This document shows, piece after piece, positions 41,632 through 64,000 of a DNA stretch of 64,000 bases. The notes beneath the pieces were generated by a model that had not been told where the DNA came from, searched no databases, and worked only from the letters and a program-made list of their open reading frames with translations. Origin of the DNA: Candidatus Falkowbacteria bacterium (GTDB taxonomy: Bacteria; Patescibacteriota; Patescibacteriia; UBA11705; JABHMO01); the NCBI GenBank assembly GCA_018674305.1, contig JABHAL010000004.1, forward strand, positions 446-64,445, read 5' to 3'. Made by a program: the position numbers and the translations under genes. Positions within the stretch are counted from its first letter, which is position 1. The number at the start of each line of letters is the position of its first letter.

Positions 41632-41654
41632 GACACAGTGAATTAGTTAATTTG

Positions 41655-42023
41655 TTAATTAGTTAATTGGCTCTTCAAGTTATTAATATAACTATTCAAA
41701 CCAACCAATAATCCTTGATAACTATCATCAAGATGTTTCCATTTTTCTTCTGAAATATATTTCAAACTCATGGCAACGCACAAATGACTTCTTACTTCTT
41801 CCAATTCACCACGAGAAATATACAACACTCGAACTTTGTCTTTAAAAAAATATCTCCCTTGACTTTCGGCAATATTAGCAATGACGGAGTTTGCCGCCCT
41901 GATCAATTGCTGAATCAAACAAAACTTCTCCCAAGATGGAAAACCTTTTGTGATCTCATAAATTTCAATTAGCAACTCATGACCTTGTTGCCAAATTCTC
42001 AACTCACTGAATGATTTTGCCAT
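41655..42023 (-). CDS. Four-helix-bundle protein (23S rRNA intervening-sequence protein family, TIGR02436-like)
   Basis: 122 aa, pattern SELRIWQ...LIRAANSVIANIAEG. Confidence 0.7.
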   Translation of the reverse strand: MAKSFSELRIWQQGHELLIEIYEITKGFPSWEKFCLIQQLIRAANSVIANIAESQGRYFFKDKVRVLYISRGELEEVRSHLCVAMSLKYISEEKWKHLDDSYQGLLVGLNSYINNLKSQLTN

Positions 42024-43963: not shown

Positions 43964-44074
43964 GTCCTGGCGACGACCTACTTTCCCACTGTGTAGTATC
44001 ATCGGCGCTACAGGGCTTAACTGCTGTGTTCGGGATGGGAACAGGTGTGGCCCCTGCGCTAGAGTCACCAGGAC
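43964..44074 (-). rRNA. rrf: 5S ribosomal RNA
   Basis: The reverse complement matches 5S conserved blocks (CCTGGCGAC...CATCGGCGCTAC...TTCGGGATGGGAACAGGTG). A flanking processing stem cagagacatagtcctgg / ccaggactatgtctctg is present. Confidence 0.85.
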
Positions 44075-44159
44075 TATGTCTCTGTTTAAATAGAATATTT
44101 GATTCAAGTATAATAATTACAATTTGTAATCCGAAAATGTGAATATTAACATTATAGTG

Positions 44160-47140
<2,981 letters not shown>

Positions 47141-47439: not shown

Positions 47440-47467
47440 ATTATATAGGAATTTAAAATTATGTCAA
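47440..47467 (-). promoter_or_regulatory. Sigma70-like promoter TTGACA-16-TATAAT on the minus strand, ~300 nt upstream of 23S
   Basis: Reverse complement of tgtcaa at 47462-47467 and of attata at 47440-47445. Confidence 0.5.
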
Positions 47468-47552: not shown

Positions 47553-48050
47553 CTATGTTTTAGCCTTGGCATTCATTAATGCGTCGCTGATTTCATAGCA
47601 CCAAGGCGTTTTCTTTGTGTTTACAAGAACCACATACTTATCCCCGGAAAGAATAATCAAGCCCTGTTCAACCATTTCATAAATACGTTCGCAATCACCA
47701 TATAATATGCCATTCAAAGCTGGCATTTCTGATTCGGAAACAACTCTTGTTAAATGAACTTTTTTTTCTCCATCAACGTAACGGAAAAAACTCAATGTGT
47801 AGACACCCGGTTTTTTAGTGCCTGTAATAGAGACATGCAAAATTCCTGCATCCCTGTAAAGTTCTTTCAGTCTCGAGCTAACTTCCCAATCTTGACGGTC
47901 AAGCTTTGTCCGATCCTCCTCTATCTGATAAATCCTTTTACGCAATTCATTCGCTTCATCAATCAACGCCAACTTCTTTTCTGTGAAGGATTTATGATCT
48001 ACAAATTTTTCTTCAAACTCTTTTCGTAAGGTTTCTTCTTTTGTTGCCAT
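47553..48050 (-). CDS. Hypothetical protein
   Basis: 165-aa ORF. A terminator hairpin lies downstream at ~47527-47550. Confidence 0.4.
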   Translation of the reverse strand: MATKEETLRKEFEEKFVDHKSFTEKKLALIDEANELRKRIYQIEEDRTKLDRQDWEVSSRLKELYRDAGILHVSITGTKKPGVYTLSFFRYVDGEKKVHLTRVVSESEMPALNGILYGDCERIYEMVEQGLIILSGDKYVVLVNTKKTPWCYEISDALMNAKAKT

Positions 48051-48068
48051 TCATTTCTCCTTTTTAAT

Positions 48069-48536
48069 CTATATTGAATTTGCCATTTGAATTGCCAAAT
48101 TAACTGTTCCTTTTAAAGTATCTGCAATTGGTACGCCATGCTTTTTCGCATAATGGCGAATGTAACCCATCTTCTTCGCTTCAGGTGGAGAACCAAGGAC
48201 AACCTTACCAGAATTCTCCCAACGTCCCCATTCTACATTAGTTGTAAAACCAGGCATGGTTTCAAGCACACGCGGAATCCAGAACAAAATGCAATCTGCT
48301 GCATTCATCTGTTCGTCTTCCCAGTCAACTTGATACTCCCAATTAAATGTTTCTAGATCACGACTCTCAGGAATAAAAATATTTCCATCAAACCCAAATT
48401 GTTCAAAAAGCCTAATTGCTTCTGGTCGCCAAGACGAAACAATTGGTTCAACCCAAGGCCTTGGAGTTGGCCCAGCTAGAAAAATTCTTTTTTCCGCATC
48501 ATCAACCAGCGGATCATCTACGTGAAAGACTCTCAC
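48069..48536 (-). CDS. Nucleoside 2-deoxyribosyltransferase-like protein
   Basis: IFLAGP Rossmann-like motif typical of the NDT superfamily. Paralogous to 52186..52680. Confidence 0.45.
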   Translation of the reverse strand: MRVFHVDDPLVDDAEKRIFLAGPTPRPWVEPIVSSWRPEAIRLFEQFGFDGNIFIPESRDLETFNWEYQVDWEDEQMNAADCILFWIPRVLETMPGFTTNVEWGRWENSGKVVLGSPPEAKKMGYIRHYAKKHGVPIADTLKGTVNLAIQMANSI

Positions 48537-48616
48537 TTAAACCTCCGAATTACAAATTGAAAATGAACCGTTAAGAATTTACATTATATAAAATATACTC
48601 TTTTGTCAACAAAAAC

Positions 48617-48652
48617 CCCGCCTGCTACATTATAGCGGCGGAGCTGTTTTTT
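48617..48652. terminator. Bidirectional terminator hairpin (cccgcc...ggcgg plus T-run)
   Basis: Direct reading. Confidence 0.45.
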
Positions 48653-49445
48653 ATTTCTGTACTCTCAAAGCTTCTCGCAAATAATCACCTGCTTCATCTA
48701 AATTGAGTCTGTCTTCTTCGTCACGCAAAAGCCCTTCCGTATCAATACAAATATCTGGATACCTTTTCACGATTTCAGGAATCAAATGAAAAGTTCCCGC
48801 GGACAAACCACCAGCTACCCCATAACCAATTCCCAAACTTGGTTGGTAAATTGATTCAAGATAATAAAGTAACTGTGCTTGATTTAATGGTTGACCAAAT
48901 CCACAACTTGGATCAAGTAGCACATAATCAATGTGCCGGGAGTAGGCATTAATCAAACTAGCCATCACGTCTGGGTTTCTTACTCTTTCAAAAGCTCTTG
49001 ATCCAATCTGTAAAACAATTACAACGTTAGGATACTCATTTCTGAATAGTCTAAGTTCATCAAGACTTGGCCAAGGAATGTTCAATTGAAAACCATGACA
49101 GGCTGGGCCAGCAATATTCATTAAAATTGCCATTTCATCAGACAGTTTGCCGCCCAGATCTTTTTTAAAATTGAAATGAATCAAATTCAAGGCACACGGA
49201 TGATCCACGAAAATACTTTGAATTTCCTCTACCTCCGAATAACGATTAGGCCACCTGTTTGCAACTCCACATAAAGACTTTGAGCTGACCAGAACGCCAA
49301 CCATTAATTTGTGTCTACCTTCCGCTGGCATCAAGGCCAACATTGCTTCAACTTCCTGCCGGCTCACGAATCCAGTAATTCCGATGTACGGCTTATTCAC
49401 GCTCCCCCTCCATTTAAAGGAACACCCACGTAGGTAATTTAGCAC
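48651..49445 (-). CDS. Hypothetical TIM-barrel-like protein (weak resemblance to phosphoribosylanthranilate isomerase)
   Basis: IGITGF at the N-terminus and DYVLLDPSCGFG near the C-terminus resemble TrpF patterns. Low confidence. Confidence 0.3.
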   Translation of the reverse strand: MLNYLRGCSFKWRGSVNKPYIGITGFVSRQEVEAMLALMPAEGRHKLMVGVLVSSKSLCGVANRWPNRYSEVEEIQSIFVDHPCALNLIHFNFKKDLGGKLSDEMAILMNIAGPACHGFQLNIPWPSLDELRLFRNEYPNVVIVLQIGSRAFERVRNPDVMASLINAYSRHIDYVLLDPSCGFGQPLNQAQLLYYLESIYQPSLGIGYGVAGGLSAGTFHLIPEIVKRYPDICIDTEGLLRDEEDRLNLDEAGDYLREALRVQK

Positions 49446-49495: not shown

Positions 49496-49580
49496 TGGTG
49501 GGCGGGAAAGGACTTGAACCTTCACGGCCGAAGCCACCAGTTCCTAAGACTGGCGTGTCTACCAATTTCACCACCCGCCC
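49496..49580 (-). tRNA. tRNA-Leu (anticodon UAG)
   Basis: A hand fold gives acceptor GGGCGGG/CCCGCCC, anticodon loop CTTAGGA, a long variable arm and encoded CCA. Confidence 0.8.
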
Positions 49581-49735
49581 ATCATGAACGTGTTATTTGC
49601 AATTTTTACCCTCCAAGAATATCATACCCCAATTAGTTAGTCAATATTTAAGGTTATTTTACTAACAAAACAAGGTAAGACCTTGACAAATTTTGTAAAT
49701 TAAGCTAAAATATAATGTTTTAGACCCAAAAGGGC

Positions 49736-49764
49736 TTGACAGATGATAGTTTAGTGTGTATAAT
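49736..49764 (+). promoter_or_regulatory. Consensus sigma70 promoter TTGACA-17-TATAAT for nadK-pncB, with a GTGTG-N5-TACAC palindrome overlapping the -10
   Basis: ttgacagatgatagtttagtgtgtataatacac read directly. An AAGGAG RBS precedes the ATG at 49809. Confidence 0.7.
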
Positions 49765-49808
49765 ACACTTAGTAGGAACTTTGACAACTTTTTTATAAGG
49801 AGCCCCTA

Positions 49809-50687
49809 ATGGCTGACAAAAAAATTGCACTTGTTTGGTTCAAACCTCGCAATGTGCACACAAAAGAGGAAAGCTTTCAAAAATACATTGAAACACTAGC
49901 AGCAAAAGCTGCAAAAATTCGAAAGCAAATTGGCATCAACTATTTGCCACATCAGTCAGAATACATTGGAGTGGTTGGCGGTGATGGTCCTCAGATTGAA
50001 AGAGCAAAAGAGTTTGCCCATCTAGGAATTCCGATTTACGGAATCAATATGGGAACATATGGATTTCTTCTCAATAACCACGGTGATAACGATGATATTC
50101 GTGCAGCGATTGAAGCTGCCGTCTGGATCAAATTCCCTTTGCTGGATATTGAAATTGAATACCTTGATGGCTCAATTGATAAGACTCTGGCTTTTAACGA
50201 CCTATACACAAAAACCTCTGGGGTTCAAACCGCAAAACACAGAGTTTTTGTGAATGGTGAAAACATTATTCCTCAGGTCTTTGATGATCGGGAAACTTTC
50301 GCCATGGGTGACGCTGTAATTGTTTGCTCTGCAGGTGGTTCGACTGCCTACAACCGAGCAGCCGGTGGAAAAGTTTTTTCTCCCAACGCTAAGGTTTTTG
50401 GCATTACCATTGCATCTCCGTTTCCGATTCCATTCAAACCGATTCAAGTGCCTGATACCAGTGAAGTTGTCATTGAAGTTCTGGAAGATGAAAAGCGTCA
50501 ACACATGATTATTGCGGATAATGAAGCCTACACCGATGTACGAAAAGTTACTATCCGCAAGTCTGAATTGACGGTTACCCTGGGCTTCAAGCCTGGTGAA
50601 ACGCATCAGGACAAAGTCAAGAAAATGGAACAAAACCTAAGAGCTTGGAAAAAGAAAGCTCAAGAAAACGGAGGCCAAAATGCTTGA
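49809..50687 (+). CDS. nadK: NAD+ kinase
   Basis: GGDG motif and AGGSTAY. Confidence 0.65.
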   Translation: MADKKIALVWFKPRNVHTKEESFQKYIETLAAKAAKIRKQIGINYLPHQSEYIGVVGGDGPQIERAKEFAHLGIPIYGINMGTYGFLLNNHGDNDDIRAAIEAAVWIKFPLLDIEIEYLDGSIDKTLAFNDLYTKTSGVQTAKHRVFVNGENIIPQVFDDRETFAMGDAVIVCSAGGSTAYNRAAGGKVFSPNAKVFGITIASPFPIPFKPIQVPDTSEVVIEVLEDEKRQHMIIADNEAYTDVRKVTIRKSELTVTLGFKPGETHQDKVKKMEQNLRAWKKKAQENGGQNA

Positions 50688-51969
50688 CATGAAGCGCCTC
50701 AAAGAAGAGCGCAAAAAGATCAAGAAGATTCTCTACACACCTGATGAAGTCAAGGCAATCATTGCCGGAATCAAGCCGATCATTCAGGGAATTTCCGATG
50801 AAGATGTGTACAAGTTCACGATGCAACAGGGCGCCTATCTCGGACAGTCTTTCAATGGCTCAAAGAACTTTTGCGATCTGGATGTAGAGTACGACTTTAA
50901 CGATCGGAAAGGTACGGTTTACCCAGAAGGCTTTGCCGATGCAGTTACGCGCCAGGTCCGACTCATGGGCAATATGCGTCTCCAAGACTGGGAACGAAAA
51001 GGCTTTGAAAGCATGTCCTGGTTCAAGCGAAGCTATCTTGATTTTCTCAGTAGCTATCGCTATGACCCGAGTGAAGTTACAGTTCGACAAGACAGAAAGG
51101 GGCGCCTTTTTATCAAAGTAAACGGCCCCTGGTATCGTACGATCCTGTGGGAAGTTCCCATCCTGGCGATTGTCAGCGAGCTGTACTTCCACATGACCGG
51201 ACAGACTCCGAACGTTGAAACTTTTGAGACCAACCTGGTCAACAAGACCTTCAACTTCAATCGTCCTGGCTTCACTTACATCGACTTTGGTACCCGTCGT
51301 CGAGTTTCTTACCTGACCCAGGAAGCAGTTTGTCTCTATATGGCACAGACCATTCCTGACAACTTCCTTGGTACGAGCAATTGCTATATTGCTTTCAAGA
51401 ATGGACTCAAGGCGTTCGGTACTCATGCTCATGAATGGTTCATGGCACACCAAGCGATGTTTGGTACTCGCATGGCCAACGAAATGGGTTTAGAATCCTG
51501 GGTTCGTATGTACGATGGTGCACTGGGCATTGCCCTTACCGACACTTTCACCACTGCGAACTTCCTTGAGGCTTTTGGTAAGCGTTACGCTGAGCTTTTC
51601 ACTGGAGTTCGTCACGACAGTGGCTGTCCATTTGAATTTGGTGAAGCGATAATCAAACATTACGAAAGGCTGGGAATTGACCCCAAAAGCAAGGCCATCG
51701 TCTTTAGCGATGGACTGGATGACAAGCTGGCCGTTGAACTTCACGAAAAGTTCTATGGCCGTATCGGCGTATCCTTTGGTATCGGAACATTCTTATCCAA
51801 TGACGTTGGATTTAAGCCCCTATCCATTGTGATCAAAATCAGCAAATGTCGATGGTTAGGAACTGAACGCTGGATCTACGTAGTCAAACTGTCCGACAAT
51901 CCAGCCAAACACCACGGTCCGCCAGAGGCTATTACCAATACTCAGTATGACATTGGTTTAGCAGCTTAA
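50680..51969 (+). CDS. pncB: Nicotinate phosphoribosyltransferase
   Basis: DFGTRRR, VRHDSG, and C-terminal GIGTFL motifs. Confidence 0.8.
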   Translation: MLDMKRLKEERKKIKKILYTPDEVKAIIAGIKPIIQGISDEDVYKFTMQQGAYLGQSFNGSKNFCDLDVEYDFNDRKGTVYPEGFADAVTRQVRLMGNMRLQDWERKGFESMSWFKRSYLDFLSSYRYDPSEVTVRQDRKGRLFIKVNGPWYRTILWEVPILAIVSELYFHMTGQTPNVETFETNLVNKTFNFNRPGFTYIDFGTRRRVSYLTQEAVCLYMAQTIPDNFLGTSNCYIAFKNGLKAFGTHAHEWFMAHQAMFGTRMANEMGLESWVRMYDGALGIALTDTFTTANFLEAFGKRYAELFTGVRHDSGCPFEFGEAIIKHYERLGIDPKSKAIVFSDGLDDKLAVELHEKFYGRIGVSFGIGTFLSNDVGFKPLSIVIKISKCRWLGTERWIYVVKLSDNPAKHHGPPEAITNTQYDIGLAA

Positions 51970-52185
51970 ACTTAAACATAACCCTACTTTCACACTTGGA
52001 AGTAGGGTTTTTTTGTCACAAACAAACGACTTTGTTTTCCCAAAGGGACCAGATTGTGGTAAATTAAAACAAAAACTACACAAAACAGTTGACTTTATGT
52101 GAAAAGTATGTTGTAATTATTAATCGTTTACTAGGTACCTACTACCTTAGACTAGATATCTAAAAAGTAGGGAAGGAGTTCTTTT

Positions 52186-52680
52186 ATGAGTACCGTAACA
52201 ATTGGCCTGTTTGGAACTTGTGGTGGCAGTGTTTGGCGGGATACTTTCATGAAACGCTATGAACAAGAAGGTATCGCCTTTTTCAACCCAGTGGTTGAAG
52301 ACTGGGATCCCAGCATGGCCGAGGTGGAAGCTGAACATCTGGCAAACGATGAAATCATCCTGTTCCCTGTAACCAAAGAGTCCTATGGCTCTGGTTCATT
52401 GGCAGAGGTTGGTTTCTCCATTCTCCAGGCCATTCGCCTGGATGACCGGCGCGACTTTGTCATCCTGATCGACATGGACCTGGATGAAAGCTTGGATGAC
52501 CCGATTGCACGGAAAGACTCTATCAGGGCCCGCGCCCTGGTCAAGCAACATCTGAAGAAGCAACGGCTCAAGAACGTGTACTTGGTTGAGTCGTTGGAAG
52601 AAATGCTGGAAGTAAGTGTGCAACTGCACGAAGCCGCCAGCATCCACAGTGGACTGAGGAGATTCAATCCTCACCGCTAG
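52186..52680 (+). CDS. Nucleoside 2-deoxyribosyltransferase-like protein (paralog of 48069..48536)
   Basis: Shares the W..E...DEIILFPV..ES.GS..E.G pattern. Confidence 0.4.
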   Translation: MSTVTIGLFGTCGGSVWRDTFMKRYEQEGIAFFNPVVEDWDPSMAEVEAEHLANDEIILFPVTKESYGSGSLAEVGFSILQAIRLDDRRDFVILIDMDLDESLDDPIARKDSIRARALVKQHLKKQRLKNVYLVESLEEMLEVSVQLHEAASIHSGLRRFNPHR

Positions 52681-52689
52681 ACAACCATG

Positions 52690-52728
52690 AACCGCATCAA
52701 CATCTTAATGTTGATGCGGTTTTTCATT
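52690..52728. terminator. Intrinsic terminator (accgcatcaacat ctta atgttgatgcggt TTTT)
   Basis: Perfect 13-bp stem. Confidence 0.85.
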
Positions 52729-52776
52729 ATTATACAATTATAAAAAGTCCTGGTAGTTACCAAGACTTTTATGTTT

Positions 52777-53838
52777 TTATTTCCTTCCAGCAAACGTGTC
52801 AAAGAATTCAACTCCCAACGCTTTAGCGTCTCGGAAAGTTCGATTAAACTCCTGCCATTCCACAGGTATTGATTCCAACCCAACATTGGCTCCAATTAAC
52901 GCACCCACAATTGCCGCATTAGTATCAGTGTCACCGCCAGCGTTAACTGCTTCCAGTACACCTGCTCGGAAGTTAGTTGGATTACGAAAGAAAATTGCAA
53001 TGGCAAAAGGAATTGATTCCAAGGAATAACAACTACAACCGTTTTGTTGAATCAAGCCATTTAGATTCGACAGCAAACCATTCTCATGAATCTTTTGTAA
53101 CCGGTCTGAAATTTTATCAGTATAATCATGGTAAGCTGAATACAATTTTTCAGCAGCCCTGACCGTTTTGACCAAAGCCTTGAACTTCAAATCTACCTTT
53201 CTAGAACCAACGTCCATTTCATCCTTAACCGATGAGGACATTAACCAGCAAATTGCATAAGCAGCAATCGAAGCACGAATATCTGAATGAGTGGCCATAC
53301 CCTGCTCCACACATATAGACATCATTTTACCACCAGTTACTCCACCATTAGCTAGGGCAACATACATAGCCAGTGGCGCAATTTTCATAGCTACGCCATT
53401 GCCACAACCCTGATTCGGCGCTGGTCGATTACTATGATTTCTCGGATCCTTGCCTTCCCGACCATCAGTCTGAAAAAAACGTTGGATCTGAAAAATAGAA
53501 TTCCGCGTTGAGCCTCCCCAACCAGCAGTACTTTCATTAGCTTCACGAATCTGCTCTTTGAGCATATCCTCAAAATCATAACCCTTACAACGAATCAATG
53601 ATTTTGCCAACGCTCGAGTCAACTGCCAGTCATCAGTAGTTTCACCAGCTTTAAAATTACTAATGCTATCAAAACGAGTTTGCTTAGCATCAAGAAAACC
53701 AGTAACACCACCTGGTACAGCTTTTTCTATCTGATCATCAGTCATAGTTTCAACGGGCATGCCCATTGCATCGCCAATGGCAACGCCAAGAAAGCAAGCC
53801 TGAACTTTACTGCGGAATAATTCATTCAAGTCCTGCAT
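52777..53838 (-). CDS. ADP-ribosylglycohydrolase family protein
   Basis: FLGVAIGDAMGMPVE signature and C-terminal acidic metal-site residues. Confidence 0.75.
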   Translation of the reverse strand: MQDLNELFRSKVQACFLGVAIGDAMGMPVETMTDDQIEKAVPGGVTGFLDAKQTRFDSISNFKAGETTDDWQLTRALAKSLIRCKGYDFEDMLKEQIREANESTAGWGGSTRNSIFQIQRFFQTDGREGKDPRNHSNRPAPNQGCGNGVAMKIAPLAMYVALANGGVTGGKMMSICVEQGMATHSDIRASIAAYAICWLMSSSVKDEMDVGSRKVDLKFKALVKTVRAAEKLYSAYHDYTDKISDRLQKIHENGLLSNLNGLIQQNGCSCYSLESIPFAIAIFFRNPTNFRAGVLEAVNAGGDTDTNAAIVGALIGANVGLESIPVEWQEFNRTFRDAKALGVEFFDTFAGRK

Positions 53839-54006
53839 GAGAACCTCCATATATTTATTTTTTACAAAGAACCGTTCATAGACATTATATATTATAGTAT
53901 TAATAATTTTTAGTCAATGATAAAAAACATATATATTAATTGACAATTTGGCTTAATTTTCATACAATTAAGTATAAATATGTTCATTCAACAAAGGAGA
54001 AAATAA

Positions 54007-54470
54007 TGAAGAACTCATCTTGGATTGTTGTTTTTATGTTTTCATGTTTTTATGTTTTTATGTTCAATGGTTGTTCAATCATTAAAAAACAATGCGAAGC
54101 CCCACCAGGACCTTGCGACATCGCCGACTGGCAAACGCATTGCAAGCAAAGCATTGATGATTTGGACTGGCTAAGGGCTCATTACTTCAACAACACTTAT
54201 TGCTTTTGCCAAGATCTAAAAACCACAGCAATTATTGTTTCAGATGAATGTTTACAATTAGCTGACAAAGCTGAAACCGAAAGAGACAAACGAGAATATC
54301 TAGTCACAGCTGGTCATCTTATCCTCTACTATGCATTTGACGAGTGCGATAAACTTGGCTCAGTTGTTTATGACAGATTAACCAAAGCCAAATTACATAA
54401 ACAAGCCAAGCAGTTTGCTAAAGAATGCAAGATTGCACATTACCAACTCTCAGAAGAAGAGTTACCATGA
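54007..54470 (+). CDS. Putative lipoprotein (signal peptide plus lipobox-like NGC)
   Basis: AAAGGAG RBS. A TTGACA-17-TACAAT promoter lies upstream at ~53940. Confidence 0.45.
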
Positions 54471-54482
54471 AAAAATATTAAA

Positions 54483-54517
54483 CCCCACCTTCTATTAAAG
54501 GTGGGGCTTTTTCTTTA
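54483..54517. terminator. Bidirectional intrinsic terminator (ccccacct...aggtgggg TTTTT)
   Basis: Perfect 8-bp stem between convergent genes. Confidence 0.8.
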
Positions 54518-55300
54518 CGGAGTAAAGAAATTGTTTTGAGCACTCTTCGGATTAACCTTGGCCTGTGATGCGCGGATCACAGACTGACTAACCAGTTGGA
54601 AAACCCGACGAACATCAGACGGGGTATCACCAGCTTCAAGAACTGCACCAGCCGGAATACCCATGTCCTTGGCCACATCTTTGAATCCGTGATTTCCCAA
54701 TCCAACCATAGCCAGAACAAAGGTTTCAGAATCCAGAAGATCCTTGGCCAAAGTTGCACAATCCGCAGCAGTGTGCTGACGAGAGCCATAATCCTGACCA
54801 TCAGTAATCACTACAGCAATGCTACGCACAGTTGTTCCAGAGTCGCGAAGCTGCTGAGCATAAGTAACATTAGCAGACAAAGTCTCAACCCACTTGTCAT
54901 AAAGAGGAGTGCAACCACCAGGATGGTAACTTTTATTATCCAATTTTTCAGCATCCACAACTTTCAGATAAGAGTGATAAGGGTTGTCTCTGTTCAAGGC
55001 CCACATTCCAAGCAAAAATGAATCCTTCTGTTTGGAATCAACCAGCGCTTCAATCAAAGCATTCTGGCCATCAATAACCGCACCAACAACATCCCACATA
55101 GAACTTGAGTCATCAATCAAGAGACTTACCAAGGCAACTTCAGTTGCATCGATCTCATCAAGGTCCAATCCATCGCAACCCATGAGAACATTATCATCAA
55201 GACTTACGCACATTAGGTCACGCGATGGCAAAGAGATGATCCCATGATCAGCTGCATCACCTAGAACACTTTTTACAGTACCAATATCAGGTTTACTCAT
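54515..55300 (-). CDS. von Willebrand factor A domain protein (TerY-like)
   Basis: MIDAS DDSSSM and VVITDGQD motifs. Confidence 0.6.
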   Translation of the reverse strand: MSKPDIGTVKSVLGDAADHGIISLPSRDLMCVSLDDNVLMGCDGLDLDEIDATEVALVSLLIDDSSSMWDVVGAVIDGQNALIEALVDSKQKDSFLLGMWALNRDNPYHSYLKVVDAEKLDNKSYHPGGCTPLYDKWVETLSANVTYAQQLRDSGTTVRSIAVVITDGQDYGSRQHTAADCATLAKDLLDSETFVLAMVGLGNHGFKDVAKDMGIPAGAVLEAGDTPSDVRRVFQLVSQSVIRASQAKVNPKSAQNNFFTP

Positions 55301-55416
55301 AATAATCTCCTATGAGTTAAAAGATTAAAGTTGAAAGTTAAACACAAGAAATTAACTCAGACAAAGACGGTTCCCTCCTCCGACTTAAGTCGGAGGAGGG
55401 TTTGTTATTTTTAGGT

Positions 55417-56412
55417 TTACGCAGCGATGTCGATAACGTCAGTAGACTTGACTACGTGCATACCCGCAGCGCGGAAATCATCCAGCGCATCCTTGGCCAT
55501 CTGCGGGAAGTCAACGATAACTGCACCAGTATTAGGATCAGTCACGGCCGGAACCGGAGACATGCAATCCTCCAGAATATAAACCTTGTCCACCAGACTA
55601 GGATCAACAGCGTTAATTTCACGCAGCAAGTCTTCAATCGTGGTCTTAACGCAATGACTGGAAGCCTGACCAGCAATGTAGATCCGATCATTTTCCATCA
55701 AAGCCTTGAAGAACTTGGTATTGAACTGGCCAACCACTCGACCAGCCACATCCTTCACTTCAGGCGAAAGAACTGAATAGTTCTCAGTCAGAGGATGAAC
55801 ACCCTTGGTCTCAAACTTGGTCTGCTTGCGACGAGCTACTGCATGGAACATAGCTGCTTCAAAAACTGCCGGAACCATCGCATGCCCAACACAACCAAGC
55901 ATGGTGTGATACGGCCAAACGCAAAGCATATATTTGCCAGTTTTCTCAAGCTCCTCGCAATATGCAATGCACTCATGCGGATAAAGTGCTGGCACATACT
56001 TGCCACTCTTAATATCCGCAACAGAAATGAGCGTGAACGGAGCAGGGTGCTTGCCGGTTGCACTCTCAATCCAGAAAGAAGGATGGAAAATCTGGTAAGC
56101 TTTGTGCGTATCCAGAGAAAAATGCATCTCTGTGATCAGCCCCAGATTTTTGTAAATGAACTCACACAATCTGGCACTGTCTTCCATTGCGCCAGGGACA
56201 GACAAACTACCAGAAGTCAAACAAAAATCATTCTGTACATCAATACCGAAAAGTGCAATTTTGAATTTATCATCTACTGACGGCTTCAAGCCATGCACCT
56301 TGGCAAAATCAGTTGCCTCCTCAGCAACCATCGCCTTACGAGAAAGATACAGATCGCCAACCTTGCTAGCGTCATAAAAACTCGGAAACGGAAAAATTTT
56401 AGCATTACTCAT
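55417..56412 (-). CDS. Isochorismatase-family hydrolase (divergent nicotinamidase-like) with an N-terminal extension
   Basis: IALFGIDVQNDFC motif. GGAG RBS. Confidence 0.5.
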   Translation of the reverse strand: MSNAKIFPFPSFYDASKVGDLYLSRKAMVAEEATDFAKVHGLKPSVDDKFKIALFGIDVQNDFCLTSGSLSVPGAMEDSARLCEFIYKNLGLITEMHFSLDTHKAYQIFHPSFWIESATGKHPAPFTLISVADIKSGKYVPALYPHECIAYCEELEKTGKYMLCVWPYHTMLGCVGHAMVPAVFEAAMFHAVARRKQTKFETKGVHPLTENYSVLSPEVKDVAGRVVGQFNTKFFKALMENDRIYIAGQASSHCVKTTIEDLLREINAVDPSLVDKVYILEDCMSPVPAVTDPNTGAVIVDFPQMAKDALDDFRAAGMHVVKSTDVIDIAA

Positions 56413-56451
56413 AATAGGCTCCTAAAAAGTTAAAAGGTAAAAGTAATAACA

Positions 56452-58269
56452 TTAACTCAAGCGAAGAAGACGAATCTCCTTTTCAGAAATTACGTAAACT
56501 CCTCCTGCTGCTGAAATTAATTCACATGATTCATCAACAAACTTTTCTGTGTCAGAAAAAAGTTTAGCTTCAACAAAGTAACCATTTTCAGGATTTAGTA
56601 AAAGCAAACCCTCATCAGTTGCACATAGTACATTGTTACCACCAAGTGCTTTGCCACGAATTGTCTTTAACGATCGACTATTGTCTGCCTCCTCTTCTCT
56701 TTCAGCAATTAACTTACCGTTCTTATCGAGAAGGTAAATAACGTTAATAGTCTTACCATTTTCTACCCGAGACAAAGTGAATAAAACTGAATCATGAGTA
56801 AAATAGCATTCCGCGTCAACCAACTGTCCTTTAATCTCAGGTAACTTCACGTTGTCATTAAGAAACCCCTTGTGAGCATCAAAGACAAAGTAAACAGTCT
56901 TAAGTCCGACTCGGTAAAAACCAAAGCCGAAATCTGGTCCAACTTTGAACCAAGTCTGATTTTCCAGAATCTGTCCCACGATTTCCTGATCATTTTCAGC
57001 TAGGTAATCACCGGAGAGGGTAAAAAAATCAGATTGATTACTGGTAAACATTGGCAACTTACCAAGACCACCAACGGGAATTATCTGTTCAACCTTTTCA
57101 TTACGAATTACAGCAATCTTTTTACCGGAGCCAATCAAAGTACGGTCTCCCATCAAGGCAAAACGCATTGTTCGATCAGCTTTTTCCAAAATCACTTTTT
57201 GTTGGGTTTCCCGGCGAAGAGTATCACCTTCTTCGTAAAGATAACGCAGTTTAGGTCCCTGCAATTCGGCTAAAATAATTCTACCTCTGGTTTGAAACAC
57301 CCTCGTCGCAGTACAACTACCGTTTATTACTGTAGCTTGTACTAATGCCGGGTCCCTTTGCACACAAGTCGGACAAACACGACGAGCATGATAAACTCCG
57401 CACTTAGCACACTCCGTCCACCGAATACTTTTCAGTAGATTAAGATCTAGCTTAGCTCTTTGTTTATCGTCAAAGAGCAAGCTAAAGTAGTTAAGTAACT
57501 CATCCGGCAAAACCCCATAATGAATTGCCGCTTTGGGATACTTTACTTGGTCATCAAAAACTGAAACTGCTGCTTCAGCTCGACGAAGCATGGTTTTGAA
57601 TCCTTTATGAATGCCACCGTAAGGATGAACATACAAAAGGCTTTGAAAAAGCATGACCGCAAAAGCATAGTAATCACTTTCGCAAGTAAAAACTGCTCTA
57701 GAAGAAAAGTCCTGTCCGAACAAAAGAGGATCCAGAAACCTTTCTGTGGCCATAACACAGGGCAAACCAGCAAACTGCATACTGTCAGTGTCAATCAAGT
57801 AACTTTTTTGATCTTTGAATAGAACATTCAAATCATTAAAGTCACCAATAATCACACTTCGAGTATGCAAACCATCAACTGCCTGACCTAAGTCACCGAA
57901 AATTTCCATTACTTCAGAGTTATCAATTCCACCTTGGCGAAATTTCTTTTGCGAAAGCATATAAGCTACTTCAGCGCCAGAAACTTTAGGCATTACATAG
58001 CCGACAATTTCACCTTTTACATCTTTGGCAAGAGCGATAGGTGAAATTACATTTTTCGGCAAATTCTGAGGAAACTTTCTCAGTTTTTCAAGCTTGATCC
58101 TATGCATCATTTGCCACAGATCTTTACGATCTTGCTCCCAACCTTTCTCTGGTTTATGAAAAATCTTTACTGCTTTGTCTCGCCAGTTGAAAACCTGAGC
58201 CTCACCGCCAGTTCCCAAAATATCTTTGGGAGACAGACGGACTTTTTTACCTTCTATGTAAACATCCAT
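56452..58269 (-). CDS. Atypical protein kinase-like protein (RIO/Bud32-like core) with a C-terminal Zn ribbon
   Basis: LGTGGEAQVF...AVKIF glycine loop and lysine. IGDFNDLNVLF...YLIDTDS resembles the catalytic and DFG regions. CAKC...CPTC. Confidence 0.45.
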   Translation of the reverse strand: MDVYIEGKKVRLSPKDILGTGGEAQVFNWRDKAVKIFHKPEKGWEQDRKDLWQMMHRIKLEKLRKFPQNLPKNVISPIALAKDVKGEIVGYVMPKVSGAEVAYMLSQKKFRQGGIDNSEVMEIFGDLGQAVDGLHTRSVIIGDFNDLNVLFKDQKSYLIDTDSMQFAGLPCVMATERFLDPLLFGQDFSSRAVFTCESDYYAFAVMLFQSLLYVHPYGGIHKGFKTMLRRAEAAVSVFDDQVKYPKAAIHYGVLPDELLNYFSLLFDDKQRAKLDLNLLKSIRWTECAKCGVYHARRVCPTCVQRDPALVQATVINGSCTATRVFQTRGRIILAELQGPKLRYLYEEGDTLRRETQQKVILEKADRTMRFALMGDRTLIGSGKKIAVIRNEKVEQIIPVGGLGKLPMFTSNQSDFFTLSGDYLAENDQEIVGQILENQTWFKVGPDFGFGFYRVGLKTVYFVFDAHKGFLNDNVKLPEIKGQLVDAECYFTHDSVLFTLSRVENGKTINVIYLLDKNGKLIAEREEEADNSRSLKTIRGKALGGNNVLCATDEGLLLLNPENGYFVEAKLFSDTEKFVDESCELISAAGGVYVISEKEIRLLRLS

Positions 58270-58374
58270 TGCTTCCTCCGGAAGAAATTCTAATTTCCTA
58301 AATCCTAAACATCAAATAATATCAAATGTTCAAACCAATAAATTTAAATTTTGAACTTTGTATTTGTTTAGAAT

Positions 58375-59154
58375 TTAGATATTAGTGATTGGGATTTGTA
58401 ATTCTTGCTTTCTAACAAGAATTACCGTTGTATCGTCATGTAAAAGTTTATGATTATTACCAAGAACGTTCAGTCGCTTTTGAACCAAAGCTTTATTTTT
58501 CAAATACTTTGACCCAGTTTCAAAATCTAGCAAGTCTCCAACTTTCATTTCTTTGCCAAGCAAAGAAATATCTTCCTCACTTCTTTCAAATAACTCACTA
58601 AAGCCATCGGTGGCAATTAGCAAACTGTCGACTTCAGAAGTTGGTAGGTCATGCTGAATTTTAACTTTTGCTGAACCATAAGTTAAATATTCAGGTTCAT
58701 TATTTTGATCAATTTCTGTAACTTCTCCATTCAGAGAAATCACCCCATCACCAAAGCTAAAGATAATCGTTCTTTCTTCGGTCAAAATAAATCCGACCAA
58801 AGTAAAAAGCCAATAACTATAGGTGTCAGGAGCTTCTACTATCCCTAAACACTGATTAAAGCGACGCAGACTAAGCAAAAATTGCCTGGCCGCATCGTTC
58901 AAAAAGTACTCCCAATCATTTGGCAATTCATCTGGACAAATTTCAATCATCTGTCGTAAATGATTAGCCATAAATCGGACTCCTAACTTCGCTCCTACTT
59001 CAGAATGCCTCCCTGAGCCACAACCATCACTAACTAAACCAATAACTACTCGTTCAGTTGTGGCAATAGTTAAAGCATCTTGATTGTTCTTGAAACCTTT
59101 GTGATGATAAGATCCAATGACGCTTCCACCTTGAATAGCGAATTTATCCAACAT
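58375..59154 (-). CDS. PP2C-family Ser/Thr protein phosphatase
   Basis: LVSDGCGSG and LLIATDGFSE motifs. Confidence 0.6.
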   Translation of the reverse strand: MLDKFAIQGGSVIGSYHHKGFKNNQDALTIATTERVVIGLVSDGCGSGRHSEVGAKLGVRFMANHLRQMIEICPDELPNDWEYFLNDAARQFLLSLRRFNQCLGIVEAPDTYSYWLFTLVGFILTEERTIIFSFGDGVISLNGEVTEIDQNNEPEYLTYGSAKVKIQHDLPTSEVDSLLIATDGFSELFERSEEDISLLGKEMKVGDLLDFETGSKYLKNKALVQKRLNVLGNNHKLLHDDTTVILVRKQELQIPITNI

Positions 59155-59291
59155 TATATTTCTCCTATTTATGTAACTATGATTGTCAAAGTTCTATACT
59201 CACTATGAATTCTTCCTTGTAAAAAGCCGAAGCAAATCACAGAGAAGAAAAACGCAAGATGTAATTTCCCCACAATATGTTTTTAGGAAAT

Positions 59292-59353
59292 AGTGTAATG
59301 AATACACTTTTGTCTTACAGTTTAATCATAGTGTACTTTTTACACATTGTCAA
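59292..59353 (-). promoter_or_regulatory. Minus-strand sigma70 promoter TTGACA-17-TATGAT with GTGTA-N5-TACAC in the spacer, plus a second GTGTA-N5-TACAC copy 40 bp away
   Basis: Reverse complement: cttgacaatgtgtaaaaagtacactatgat. The second palindrome is agtgtaatgaatacact at 59292-59308. Confidence 0.6.
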
Positions 59354-59511
59354 GTCTTTTTGTTAATTTAAAACAAAAACTAGCTAAAGTTAGCTAATAA
59401 TTCCTGTGGGCAAAGGGTTAAAAATGACACTTATGTTTAAATTGAATCCTTGTAATCTCGTAAACAAAAAAACGTCTACTTAACTTTGTAAGTAGACGCT
59501 TATGATTTCAG

Positions 59512-60525
59512 TTAAAGAACAATGTCTTCAATGTGCGGCAGACCAAGGTCTTCTCGACCCAGATTCAGCGTACCTCGCCGCTTGAAGGCTCCGTTCAACG
59601 CTCTTTCCGCCAAACTGTGAATCAGTTCATACGGATAATCATCGATGATGGGAAGATCATTCAACTGATTTTTGTCTCCATCCGGATCAAAGCCAACCTG
59701 AATCAGCTTGATCATAACCTCATCGATCACGTCGTAATTTGCACGGAGTTCATCTTCATCATTCTTGCTGATTCCGAGATCAGCATCCGGCTTGCGGTTG
59801 ATTACCTCTTCCGGAACACAAAGCCGCCTGGCAAAGGCCTTCATCTCCTTTCCCTTGAGAACATTCTGGATCATTCCGAAATCACCAACATCACCGCAGA
59901 TAGTCCAGAAGGCCATCCAGAATTCCGACAGATTGTCGGTCGAAAGAACAAGTCCCTTCATAAGCCTGGCAATGTGGTACGCAGTAATCATGCGCAGACG
60001 CGCCTTGATATTTCCCTGCGCAACCTTGCGAGACCAGTCCCACTGATCAAGAGCAGCCTGATTCTGTGTTTTCACCAGAATCTCTTTTACCTGCTCATTA
60101 ATACTGGCAACTGGCGAACGAGGAAGATCATTGAGTAGATGCTCAAATCGACTTTCCTCAACATAGTGCTCAAGTAGAGCTCTCCAGTCGTAGCTACCGT
60201 TTGCAATACGGAATACTTCAGTCCATTCAACCTTGATCTGATGAACACCAAATTGATTGATAACATCAAGAGCCAAACGCTCTGCATCAGGACTGGACTC
60301 AATGGGAATCATCACTGCTGTAACATCCAGACGATAACCGTCCATCTTTGCCATGTCGCGTGCATACGCCGCCGCTCCCGTAGTTACAGCACTGTCTAGA
60401 CCTCCGGATTCAGGAATAATCAAATCATGAATACCGCTGGCTTTACAATAATCATACAGGTGCAGGGCCATCGCATCAATAGCCCGGTCAATCTGCTTAG
60501 TCGTCAATCTATACTCAGTCGTCAT
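59512..60525 (-). CDS. nadE: NH3-dependent NAD+ synthetase
   Basis: PP-loop SGGLDSAV. Start trimmed to MTTEYR. Confidence 0.65.
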   Translation of the reverse strand: MTTEYRLTTKQIDRAIDAMALHLYDYCKASGIHDLIIPESGGLDSAVTTGAAAYARDMAKMDGYRLDVTAVMIPIESSPDAERLALDVINQFGVHQIKVEWTEVFRIANGSYDWRALLEHYVEESRFEHLLNDLPRSPVASINEQVKEILVKTQNQAALDQWDWSRKVAQGNIKARLRMITAYHIARLMKGLVLSTDNLSEFWMAFWTICGDVGDFGMIQNVLKGKEMKAFARRLCVPEEVINRKPDADLGISKNDEDELRANYDVIDEVMIKLIQVGFDPDGDKNQLNDLPIIDDYPYELIHSLAERALNGAFKRRGTLNLGREDLGLPHIEDIVL

Positions 60526-61123
60526 TTTCGCCTCCGTAAAGGTCATTTGCAATAATAAACTTTTCGACAATAGGGACTACCAATCCTGTAATTGGATTTC
60601 CTGCTTTTAGTCGTGCACGGACTTCAGTACTTGAACCTGCAAGTTCTTGCACCGACAAGACCTCAGCTTTAGAAGGAAGGTCCTTCTCGTTGAGAGGAAA
60701 CCCAGCCCTACTGTTGATCACAAAGTTCAAGTTTTCCCAAACTTCCTGACCGCGATACCAGCATCTCTGAATCTCAGATTCCCCAGTAGCGCCGCCTATA
60801 ATTAGATCAGTTCCAATAACGTGGAAAACCTGACCATTAATTTGCTCTCGCAAACGGCGATCCAGATCGTAAGTACGAGTAAAGGTTTGATTCGTAACGT
60901 CACTCAAGTCAACCTTCACATTTTTCAATTCTCCGAAAGTCATAATAACCATTTCTGATCTTTCCAGTGGTGTCACTGTACCAAAGTCTTTTTTGACTCT
61001 TCCCCCACAAGGCACCACTAACACTTGATCGAAAATCTCAGAAAGAGTTTTGGCAATATCAAAGTGAGCCATTGTAGGTGGATCAAAACTACCACCAAAA
61101 ATCACAACCTTTTTGTCGTTCAT
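60515..61123 (-). CDS. nadD: Nicotinate/nicotinamide mononucleotide adenylyltransferase
   Basis: GGSFDPPTMAH motif. Confidence 0.8.
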   Translation of the reverse strand: MNDKKVVIFGGSFDPPTMAHFDIAKTLSEIFDQVLVVPCGGRVKKDFGTVTPLERSEMVIMTFGELKNVKVDLSDVTNQTFTRTYDLDRRLREQINGQVFHVIGTDLIIGGATGESEIQRCWYRGQEVWENLNFVINSRAGFPLNEKDLPSKAEVLSVQELAGSSTEVRARLKAGNPITGLVVPIVEKFIIANDLYGGENDD

Positions 61124-61226
61124 TTTGCAACCTCATTGTAAAGATCTATTATTCAATAAAATTCATAAATATATTCTGAACTTTATTGAATGGGAATTAG
61201 CTATGAGCTAATTCCCATGTGTTTAT

Positions 61227-61868
61227 TTATCGAACAACTACCACTTCAGCGGCTTCCAACTCCTGGATAATTTGTTCATCGTTCTCAGGAAATACTGAAG
61301 CGCAATATTCCTTAAGTACTCTTACTTCTGCCTCAGGAAATTCCATCTTAGCATCTTTCGCAGAGTCTTTCACACAAACATCAAAGGCCAAACAAACAAC
61401 ATCAATGCCTTCGAAATCATATGCAGAAAGACTTTCCGCGAGACCGGTCGTAATCCGTTCACCATTTTCATTAACTCCCGAGAAAAACGCGGAATGGCTA
61501 GCAACATCCGGATCCATTCCCTTCCGAACGATAAGAGCAACTTTACTCATATCAAGTAAGGGATGAATCATTGCACCGGACGAATTCTGCTTGCAATGGT
61601 CAAAAAAGACCATCTGCTCAACTCCGTTCCTTTTAACCATTGCGAACGGAGCAACACCATGTCTCGAAGCAAATTCGTAATGTCCTTCCGGATGCCAATC
61701 CTGGGTAACGATAATCAAATCGTATTCACCAGTGGCCATCAACGCATTGATCATCTTCATTAAAGCTGAGCCACCCGTAACAGCCAGGGCTCCACTTTCC
61801 ATGAAATCAAGCTGGGGATCAACAATTATCAGGATTCTGCCGATCTTAATCTTGCGAATAGTTTTCAT
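61227..61868 (-). CDS. pncA: Nicotinamidase
   Basis: IVDPQLDF...LAVTGG...TQDWHP pattern. Confidence 0.75.
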   Translation of the reverse strand: MKTIRKIKIGRILIIVDPQLDFMESGALAVTGGSALMKMINALMATGEYDLIIVTQDWHPEGHYEFASRHGVAPFAMVKRNGVEQMVFFDHCKQNSSGAMIHPLLDMSKVALIVRKGMDPDVASHSAFFSGVNENGERITTGLAESLSAYDFEGIDVVCLAFDVCVKDSAKDAKMEFPEAEVRVLKEYCASVFPENDEQIIQELEAAEVVVVR

Positions 61869-62117
61869 CTTTCACCTCTTAAATTGGTTGTAAAATAACT
61901 CAATATAGTATCACACCTACTGCTCATTGTCAAGGTCTAAATCCTCATCTTCTTTATCTATCATCAAACGCATGGCCAACTTGTAATGTTCATCTTTTAG
62001 GTCGTCTAAATTATCACGAATTTTCTTTTTATCCATATAATTGATTACTGAATTGTACTGATCTACTGAACATTTAGTATATCAGTAATTATCAGCACTC
62101 ACTTCACTTTCACAGGT

Positions 62118-62146
62118 ATTATAGTGTATTTATTACACTCTGTCAA
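62118..62146 (-). promoter_or_regulatory. Minus-strand consensus promoter TTGACA-17-TATAAT for pncA with GTGTA-N5-TACAC in the spacer
   Basis: Reverse complement: cttgacagagtgtaataaatacactataat. Confidence 0.65.
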
Positions 62147-62279
62147 GTGTTTTTAGGTGTTTTGTCGTAAAATTAGTCAAAACCATAAAAAAACATCCAC
62201 CCTATTCTAGCATATATATGTATATTTATATTCCCAGTCTTTGCCAAAAGCTATTCTATTGCTATGATTAAGTAAATGT

Positions 62280-64000
62280 ATGAAATTCAATCTCCACGCC
62301 AAATTCAAACCAGCCGGTGATCAACCACAGGCGATCGAAAAACTTGTTCAGGGCATCAAGTCTGATTTTGATAAACAGACACTACTTGGTGTAACTGGGT
62401 CTGGTAAAACTTTTACCATTGCCAACGTAATTAAAAAAACTCAATTACCTACTCTTATAATTGCTCACAATAAAACTCTAGCCGCTCAACTATGTAGTGA
62501 GTTTCGTCAGTTCTTTCCAGACAACGCAGTGGAATATTTTGTCAGCTATTATGATTATTATCAACCAGAAGCTTATCTACCGTCATCTGATACTTACATA
62601 GAAAAAGAAGCCCAAATTAATGAAGAGATTGAACGACTTCGTCACGCCTGCACGCAATCACTCTTAACTCGCAAAGATGTAATTATTGTTGCTTCAGTTT
62701 CTGCCATCTATGGTTTAGGCTCACCAGAAGAATATAAAAAAATAACCTTGCACTTAACCAAGAATCAAAAACTAGATAGGCGTGAAATGCTGGAACAACT
62801 GATTGACATGCAATTTACTAGAACAAATTCTGATTTGAAACGCGGCACTTTCAGAATGCGTGGGCAAATATTTGAGATCATGCCGATTAACGAAAATATT
62901 ATCTTTCGCTTTGAAATTTCTGATAAAATCGACCTAATTGAATCACTCGATCCGATTACCCGAAAAGTTAAACGCGAACTACCAGGTATCTGGCTTTTCC
63001 CAGCCGTGCATTATGTAATTAATGAAGACATTAAACAAAAAGCTTTTCAAACAATTCGCGCTGAACTAAAAGAACAGCTTGCTATATTCAAAAAACAAAA
63101 AAAATTATTGGAATATGAGAGATTGAAACGTCGAGTAAAATATGATTTAGAGATGATCAAAAATGTTGGTTACTGCAGTGGAATTGAAAATTACTCTCGG
63201 CATTTTGATAATAGAAAACCTGGAGAAGCGCCATTTAACCTAATGGATTATTTCAAAGCTAACAATAAAAAGTTTCTAACTGTAATTGACGAGTCTCATG
63301 TTGCGCTACCTCAAATCCGGGCCATGTATAACGGTGATCAGGCACGTAAAAGTACTTTAGTTGAACACGGGTTTAGACTACCCAGCGCCAAAGACAACCG
63401 ACCACTTAAGTTCGAGGAATTTGAAAGAAAAAACGATTCAACAATATACACCTCCGCCACTCCAACAGAATTTGAAACAAAAAGCTCGAATAAAGTCGTT
63501 GAACAGATCGTTCGCCCAACCGGCCTAATTGATCCAGAAGTTGACATCAGACCAATCTCTGGTAAGGAGCAAGAATCAAGGAGCAAGGAGCAAGGAAAAA
63601 TTAAAAAGGGAAAATTAAAAAATAAAACACACACAAAAACTCAGATTGAAGATTTAATATTAGAAATAGAAAAACAGATCAAGCTAAAAGAGAGAACGCT
63701 AGTTACGACATTAACAAAGAAAATGGCTGAAGACCTAGCTGAGTATCTGAAGAAAAAGAAAATACAAGTTTCATATCTACACAGTGATATCGACACCCTA
63801 GAAAGAATTCAAATCATCACAGATCTTAGGAACGGTAAAATTGATGTTTTAATCGGAGTAAATTTACTTCGTGAAGGACTGGACATCCCAGAAGTTTCAC
63901 TGGTTGCTATTCTTGATGCTGACAAAGAAGGGTTTTTAAGAAACGACACCAGCTTAATTCAAACCATTGGCCGAGCAGCTAGAAATGTAAACGGTAGAGT
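62280..64000 (+). CDS. uvrB: Excinuclease ABC subunit B (partial, runs off the window end)
   Basis: [22 protein letters not shown]...[10 protein letters not shown]. Contains a low-complexity insertion ([22 protein letters not shown]). Confidence 0.85.

Follow-up and report, generated by a model that had tools for sequence, protein, structure and literature searches.

The window analysed here is a 64,000-nucleotide stretch from the genome of an uncultured, low-G+C Candidatus Falkowbacteria bacterium (assembly GCA_018674305.1, contig JABHAL010000004.1, positions 446 to 64,445), which carries an island of genes for the salvage of nicotinamide adenine dinucleotide (NAD). Four copies of the palindrome GTGTR-N5-TACAC are located in the cores or the leader of three near-perfect sigma70 promoters of this island. 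With a probability of about 0.9, these palindromes are operators of NrtR, a regulator in which a Nudix domain is joined to a winged helix and which is encoded in the same genome. The comparisons of sequences on which this assignment is based revealed that the palindrome has the core of the NrtR operators, that it occurs beside nrtR in distant genomes and that the nrtR gene of the organism is located about 6.2 kb away from the window. Thus, the regulator is most probably NrtR and not a new protein. A previous sequence-only reading had suggested a shared repressor-type operator in the promoter cores of the NAD-salvage genes, which is supported by the positions and the conservation of the sites. 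It had also suggested that the regulator is analogous to NiaR or NrtR but recognises a different site. This part of the proposal has to be abandoned because the site has the published 21-bp GT-N7-AC features of NrtR operators and because nrtR itself is present beyond the window. It therefore appears that a bacterium with a reduced genome, belonging to the candidate phyla radiation (CPR), has retained a classical NrtR circuit across its whole NAD-salvage island, and no new regulator is needed to explain it.

Palindromes in three promoter cores

The palindrome GTGTR-N5-TACAC is present at positions 49754-49768, 59293-59307, 59331-59345 and 62124-62138 of the window (seven hits if both strands are counted), as compared to 0.08 sites expected from 100 dinucleotide shuffles. 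It occurs nowhere else in the 64 kb, where all other positions show at least two mismatches to GTGTA-N5-TACAC. All boxes are perfect except for one, which differs by a single G/A change. The promoter scan bore out the three predicted promoters, each with a 17-bp spacer, as well as the location of the box in the spacer of two of them and over the -10 region of the third. P1 (49736-49764, plus strand) serves nadK-pncB and matches the consensus at 12 of 12 positions (TTGACA at 49736-49741, TATAAT at 49759-49764). Its -10 hexamer TATAAT forms the centre of the palindrome in box 1 (49751-49771; TTAGTGTGTATAATACACTTA). P2 (59353-59325, minus strand), which serves the operon encoding a PP2C phosphatase and a kinase, matches at 11 of 12 positions (TTGACA at 59353-59348, TATGAT at 59330-59325), and its spacer is occupied by box 2a (59328-59348). 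The same holds true for P3 (62146-62118, minus strand; 12/12), the promoter of the pncA operon, in which box 3 (62121-62141) occupies the spacer between TTGACA (62146-62141) and TATAAT (62123-62118). Hence P2 and P3 have the common register TTGACA-NN-GTGTA-N5-TACAC-TATRAT with the 15-bp box filling the spacer, and the register of P1 is a different one. At each of these three strong promoters, a palindrome thus reaches into the region that is contacted by RNA polymerase. An extra copy of the palindrome, which had been noticed before in the intergenic region at 59.3 kb, is indeed present as box 2b (59290-59310) in the P2 leader at about +12 to +26; the centre-to-centre distance to the upstream box 2a is 38 bp and not 40 bp.

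Near-consensus promoters at 47467, 49683 and 53940 in the same region are devoid of the box according to the promoter scan, which indicates that the box is no general feature of promoters. The promoter at 49683-49711 (plus strand, TTGACA-17-TAAAAT) is located 53 bp upstream of P1, and transcripts starting there would need to traverse the P1 box. Upstream of P2, a terminator-like hairpin with a 13-bp stem and a T-run (59470-59501, minus strand) closes the pncA-nadD-nadE operon.

The promoter/box architectures recur in related Patescibacteria (CPR), whose nrtR genes adjoin pncA-nadD-nadE. For instance, locus L009, in which NadK is 46% identical and the left flank is the same as in the window, has a gene with NUDIX and WHD_NrtR domains directly upstream of pncA-nadD-nadE and carries two palindromes before nadK and two before pncA, 38 bp apart in both cases. 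Two layouts can be distinguished. Layout A, a spacer box often accompanied by a second box 38 bp downstream, is found at P2 and P3 of the window, at nadK and pncA of L009, at PP2C of L092, at PP2C and a 363-amino-acid gene of L093, at pncA and the operon of a 369-amino-acid gene and PP2C of L094, and twice in L013. The cyanobacterial locus L095 has a relaxed form of it with one-mismatch boxes and a weaker -10 region. The tandem spacing of 38 bp was observed in L009 (twice), L013, L092 and L094. Layout B, with the -10 hexamer within the palindrome, is specific for nadK (window, L006, L007, L092 and L094). In all of these arrangements, conservation is limited to the arms of the palindrome and the promoter hexamers; the flanks and the N5 centre are variable, which is the pattern expected for a protein-binding site.

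NrtR as the probable regulator

According to Rodionov et al. (2008, PMC2330246), NrtR recognises palindromic operators of 21 bp in which a GT-N7-AC core is conserved, and its binding in vitro is suppressed by ADP-ribose. GTGTA-N5-TACAC includes this core. The boxes of the window read (T/A)TAGTGT(A/G)-N5-TACACT with the core G3T4-N7-A12C13, and the canonical 21-bp NrtR box is (c)TTAGTGTA-N5-TACACTAA(g). The association with nrtR was assessed in 80 nrtR loci from species-representative genomes, which were picked solely on the similarity of the NrtR proteins (43-81%). The set comprises bacteria and archaea, including Woesearchaeota, Chloroflexota, Planctomycetota, Verrucomicrobiota, Cyanobacteria, Myxococcota and Acidobacteriota. 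These loci contain 78 boxes with no more than one mismatch, while about 10.6 were found in Markov shuffles. A box is present in 53 of the 80 loci, and 31 loci have one no more than 260 bp away from nrtR, mostly 30-160 bp upstream of it; boxes were found even at a G+C content of 66-73%. The symmetrised consensus of these foreign sites is cTTAGTGTA-N5-TACACTAAg. A weight matrix derived exclusively from the NrtR boxes of other genomes assigns 23.0 bits to box 1, 18.9 bits to box 2a and 21.1 bits each to box 2b and box 3, and the next best site of the window reaches 8.8 bits. The maxima over 20 shuffled windows were mostly between 8 and 15 bits, with a single case of 21.1 bits. Moreover, box and nrtR co-vary across genomes. 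The closest species-representative nrtR locus, L012 from Kuenenbacteria (NrtR 81% identical), has no box with one mismatch or less; upstream of its nrtR there is only the two-mismatch site GTTGTGAATAATACAC.

The window itself gave no match in a tblastn search with NrtR, which agrees with the earlier statement that it contains no regulator gene. The nrtR gene of the organism was found on contig L010, which was retrieved as a flank of the window's own pncA. L010 is identical to the window from 51227 to 64000 (100% identity over 12,774 bp) and continues for a further 7.9 kb. There, nrtR (L010:943-1650, corresponding to about 70219-70926 on the minus strand in extended window coordinates) encodes a protein of 235 amino acids and is located about 6.2 kb past the right end of the window. 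The order towards nrtR is pncA with P3, followed by uvrB, a radical-SAM gene, uvrA, uvrC, a gene for 86 amino acids and finally nrtR; in L009, nrtR directly adjoins the pncA operon. The protein has an N-terminal Nudix domain (PF00293) and a C-terminal NrtR winged helix (PF21906/PF19368), and its top NCBIfam match is the "ADPR responsive transcriptional repressor NtrR" (5e-43). It matches over the full length with BtAraR (5bs6, 4e-38), the closest solved structure by sequence, and with NrtR from Shewanella oneidensis (3gz5, 3e-28). Furthermore, it is 99% identical to the Falkowbacteria protein P0040, and the winged helix-turn-helix motif DKRNFRKK is invariant in the NrtR comparison.

Some observations weigh against this assignment. 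The NCBIfam match has 147 bits and is thus far below the equivalog cut-off of 400, which makes the protein a member of the family rather than an ortholog of the proteins represented by the model. The protein may also hydrolyse ADP-ribose because the Nudix signature GX5EX7REUXEEXGU is complete (G55-x5-E61-x7-R69-E70-L-x-E73-E74-x-G76-L). Moreover, nrtR is not adjacent to its presumed targets but about 8 kb away from the closest box-bearing promoter. The region upstream of nrtR contains imperfect boxes only, namely a half-good one at L010:806-826 (12.7 bits) and the site GTGTAAGGATTACAG at L010:838-852 with one mismatch (5.2 bits). As only such imperfect boxes flank the nrtR promoter, it is uncertain whether nrtR is autoregulated in this genome. 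Boxes with one mismatch are located just upstream of nrtR in L009 and L092.

The intact Nudix signature and the distance of about 8 kb between nrtR and its targets could also mean that the boxes are relics and that the NrtR protein of this lineage has lost its regulatory role and functions chiefly as an ADP-ribose pyrophosphatase. The signature is degenerate in most of the family members described in 2008 (PMC2330246). However, the same work mentions NrtR proteins of the NuhA type, whose Nudix boxes are intact. We consider a loss of regulation hardly credible given the single G/A change among four boxes, the invariant DNA-binding motif and the maintenance of the boxes in promoter cores across genomes that are between 100% and 40% identical. 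A dedicated NAD-salvage regulator other than NrtR, NiaR and NadR, which recognises a novel palindrome, would fit with the lack of a regulator gene in the window and with the presence of island proteins that have no family assignment (165, 264 and 176 amino acids and a small protein of 39 amino acids). The latter proteins are, however, missing in relatives in which the boxes are retained (for example, L009 and L092), and searches with Pfam, NCBIfam and PADLOC detected no DNA-binding domain in the island products of 165, 264, 176, 261 and 39 amino acids. In addition, the motif has the core and the length of NrtR boxes and tracks nrtR across phyla, and the gene is present just beyond the window, so that this explanation is very improbable.

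The palindrome might also lack any regulatory role if the three promoters were alike simply due to the duplication of a promoter cassette inside the island. The identical register of P2 and P3 and some common flanking bases could be taken as traces of such an event, but P1 has its own register and the conservation is confined to the arms, with differing N5 centres and flanks. As the arms are also kept before orthologous genes of genomes whose proteins are only 40-60% identical, as well as in unrelated phyla, and as the near-consensus promoters mentioned above are devoid of the box, a duplication explains these data so poorly that we give it scarcely any weight.

Control by NrtR remains the preferred explanation, and by analogy with the characterised NrtR proteins we infer the following mechanism. 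Each 21-bp box would be bound by one NrtR dimer, and bound NrtR would exclude RNA polymerase from the promoters because the boxes occupy the whole spacer between the -35 and -10 hexamers (P2 and P3) or surround the -10 hexamer (P1). Box 2b in the P2 leader could accommodate a further dimer and thereby serve as an extra roadblock or as a cooperative site. Upon consumption of NAD, ADP-ribose, the presumed signal, would accumulate and bind to the Nudix domain, thereby causing the release of NrtR. This would de-repress pncA, pncB, nadD, nadE and nadK as well as the cassette that is described below.

A kinase/phosphatase cassette behind NrtR boxes

The P2 operon (54515-59154, minus strand) consists of four genes resembling the TerY-P system. 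The first gene encodes a PP2C phosphatase (58375-59154; Pfam PP2C_2, 9e-19), followed by a Ser/Thr-kinase-like protein of 605 amino acids (56452-58269). The match of the latter to Pkinase is below the gathering score (E = 1.5e-5), and the kinase domain is followed by a CAKC-x9-CPTC zinc ribbon. The third gene (55417-56412) encodes a nicotinamidase-like (isochorismatase-like) hydrolase of 331 amino acids with conserved nicotinamidase D, WPxH and SHC cysteine blocks; the comparison of its family with the Protein Data Bank (PDB) yielded weak collinear matches to PncA from Mycobacterium tuberculosis only. The fourth gene (54515-55300) codes for a vWA-like protein of 261 amino acids with the motif of a metal ion-dependent adhesion site (MIDAS; DxSxS..T..D). 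The residues of this motif (D63-x-S65-x-S67, T131 and D167) are invariant in nine homologues, the Pfam VWA match is weak (E = 0.094), and the family profile had no match in the PDB. In line with the definition of TerY-P in PMC11090510, a single operon thus encodes both a PP2C phosphatase and a Ser/Thr-kinase-like protein whose zinc ribbon is located C-terminally of the kinase domain.

The sequence-only reading had placed the PP2C/kinase operon in the NAD-salvage regulon, and the comparative data support this view. NrtR boxes, some of them with two mismatches, precede the cassette in all of the 11 instances that were examined from several phyla: four CPR genomes including the window, three cyanobacteria, two Corallococcus genomes, a metagenome-assembled genome (MAG) of Actinomycetota and a MAG labelled as Rhizobium. 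In the three further CPR genomes (L092, L093 and L094; kinase 50-63% identical), the cassette is located among pncA, nadE, pncB and nadK and has a spacer box, which in L092 and L094 is accompanied by another one 38 bp downstream. In L092 and L093, nrtR is also nearby. Outside the CPR, the cassettes directly adjoin nrtR and carry tandem GTGT-N7-ACAC boxes ahead of PP2C. These loci are L095 (Aerosakkonema), L085 (Pseudanabaena) and L067 among the cyanobacteria, L048 and L077 from Corallococcus (67-73% G+C), L056 from the Actinomycetota MAG and L046 from the MAG labelled as Rhizobium. Judged from this conservation, the membership of the PP2C/kinase operon in the NrtR regulon is well supported.

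Our literature search found no report tying NrtR to PP2C, vWA or the kinase of the cassette. Unnamed NrtR targets designated nrtX-nrtY, which may or may not belong to the cassette, have been listed for Streptomyces, Frankia, Proteus and Hahella (Rodionov et al. 2008, PMC2330246). The box and the regulator themselves were already known; what appears to be new is the probable control of a kinase/phosphatase cassette by NrtR in several phyla. The cassette seems to be a widespread TerY-P-type signalling module that is consistently wired to the NAD/ADP-ribose sensor NrtR, always together with a nicotinamidase-like enzyme, while TerY-P modules are otherwise tied to stress and phage-defence loci. This link points to ADP-ribose as a specific input of the otherwise uncharacterised kinase/phosphatase module and hints at its metabolic context. 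We tentatively propose, at somewhat less than even odds, that the cassette is a conserved, cross-phylum and previously undescribed member of the NrtR regulon, which is induced by ADP-ribose when NAD is consumed and couples the NAD/ADP-ribose status to a phosphorylation switch. If true, such a switch could be thrown, for instance, during ADP-ribosylation stress or NAD-depleting phage defence.

The NAD-salvage island and related regulatory systems

The identities of nadK-pncB, of the PP2C/kinase genes and of pncA, as previously assigned, were confirmed by Pfam and NCBIfam. On the plus strand, P1 is followed by nadK (49809-50687; NAD_kinase/NAD_kinase_C) and pncB (50680-51969; NAPRTase). The P3 operon (59512-62036, minus strand) comprises a small open reading frame (ORF) for 39 amino acids (61917-62036), pncA (61227-61868), a nadD-like gene for a nicotinamide mononucleotide/nicotinic acid mononucleotide adenylyltransferase (60515-61123) and nadE (59512-60570). 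The small ORF is the first gene after P3 and is kept at the same position in L094 (2218-2340; common NLKDEHYKLAMRL) and, more loosely, in L093 (6432-6548). It is likely to be a genuine gene whose small product belongs to the NrtR regulon.

The boxes are confined to an island between a pair of 23S and 5S rRNA genes (43965-47140, minus strand), which has no adjacent 16S rRNA gene, and uvrB (from about 62280). The G+C content of the island is about 42%, as compared to about 35% left of the rRNA genes. The regions 47553-49445 and 52186-54470, which have no NrtR box, contain genes for an ADP-ribosylglycohydrolase and two nucleoside 2-deoxyribosyltransferase-like proteins; the type of gene encoding the former enzyme is linked to nrtR in Streptomyces (PMC2330246). 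The genes for the unassigned products of 165, 264 and 176 amino acids are also devoid of the box. A tRNA-Leu(TAG) gene (49496-49580, minus strand) between the 264-amino-acid gene and P1 shows about 85% DNA similarity to Pelagibacter phage HTVC011P. A phage origin of the island was considered and rejected, as a megablast search against phages matched this tRNA only and PADLOC gave only generic kinase matches.

Genes identical to those of the window are present on metagenome contigs, the longest of which has 794 kb (L001; ENA ERZ27250217 k141_206255). From 44175 rightwards, L001 is 99.7% identical to the window, but its left flank is wholly different as a result of either a rearrangement or a join made at the rRNA genes during assembly. 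Left of the rRNA genes, a 23S_rRNA_IVP/bAvd-like ORF (41655-42023) adjoins the gene of an MJ0043_C/PHP_C protein (40372-41631), both on the minus strand. In the corresponding region of L009 (226-1959), an RVT_1 reverse-transcriptase ORF is located beside the bAvd-like and MJ0043_C/PHP_C genes, and the region 40372-42023 could be a diversity-generating retroelement or what is left of one.

Among the known systems, the NrtR regulons (PMC2330246; S. oneidensis 3GZ5/3GZ6) are similar with respect to the regulator composed of Nudix and winged-helix domains, the 21-bp GT-N7-AC operator, the targets pncA, pncB, nadD and nadE, the tandem sites at some promoters and the chromosomal linkage of nrtR to NAD genes. 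The system of the window differs in that its host belongs to the CPR/Patescibacteria, a group outside that work, that its presumed targets also include nadK and the PP2C/kinase/nicotinamidase-like/vWA cassette, that the uvrBAC genes separate nrtR from its targets and that the Nudix signature is intact. NiaR (YrxA; PMC2330245) also represses genes of NAD synthesis and salvage via a TGT/ACA palindrome. However, NiaR belongs to another protein family with another effector, and its core is TGT-N4-ACA (type I) or ACA-N5-TGT (type II), whereas the palindromes described here have TGT-N7-ACA. The operator of the enterobacterial NadR, TGTTTA-N6-TAAACA, does not fit the sequence of the window either (PMC2330246, PMC2330245). 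The arabinose repressor BtAraR from Bacteroides (PMC4666351; 5BS6/5DD4), a member of the NrtR family, likewise uses a 21-bp operator with tandem sites at its main promoter, but its targets are arabinose genes and its effector is l-arabinose instead of an NAD metabolite.

The TerY-P triad, as summarised in PMC11090510 after Anantharaman (2012), consists of a vWA protein, a PP2C phosphatase and a Ser/Thr kinase with a zinc ribbon. With respect to this summary, the P2 operon is alike in encoding PP2C, a kinase-like protein with a CxxC-x9-CxxC motif and a vWA-like protein with a putative MIDAS. It differs from the triad outlined there by a fourth conserved gene for the nicotinamidase-like hydrolase, by a C-terminal extension of about 300 amino acids in the kinase and by its location under NrtR boxes among NAD-salvage genes instead of tellurite-resistance or restriction loci.

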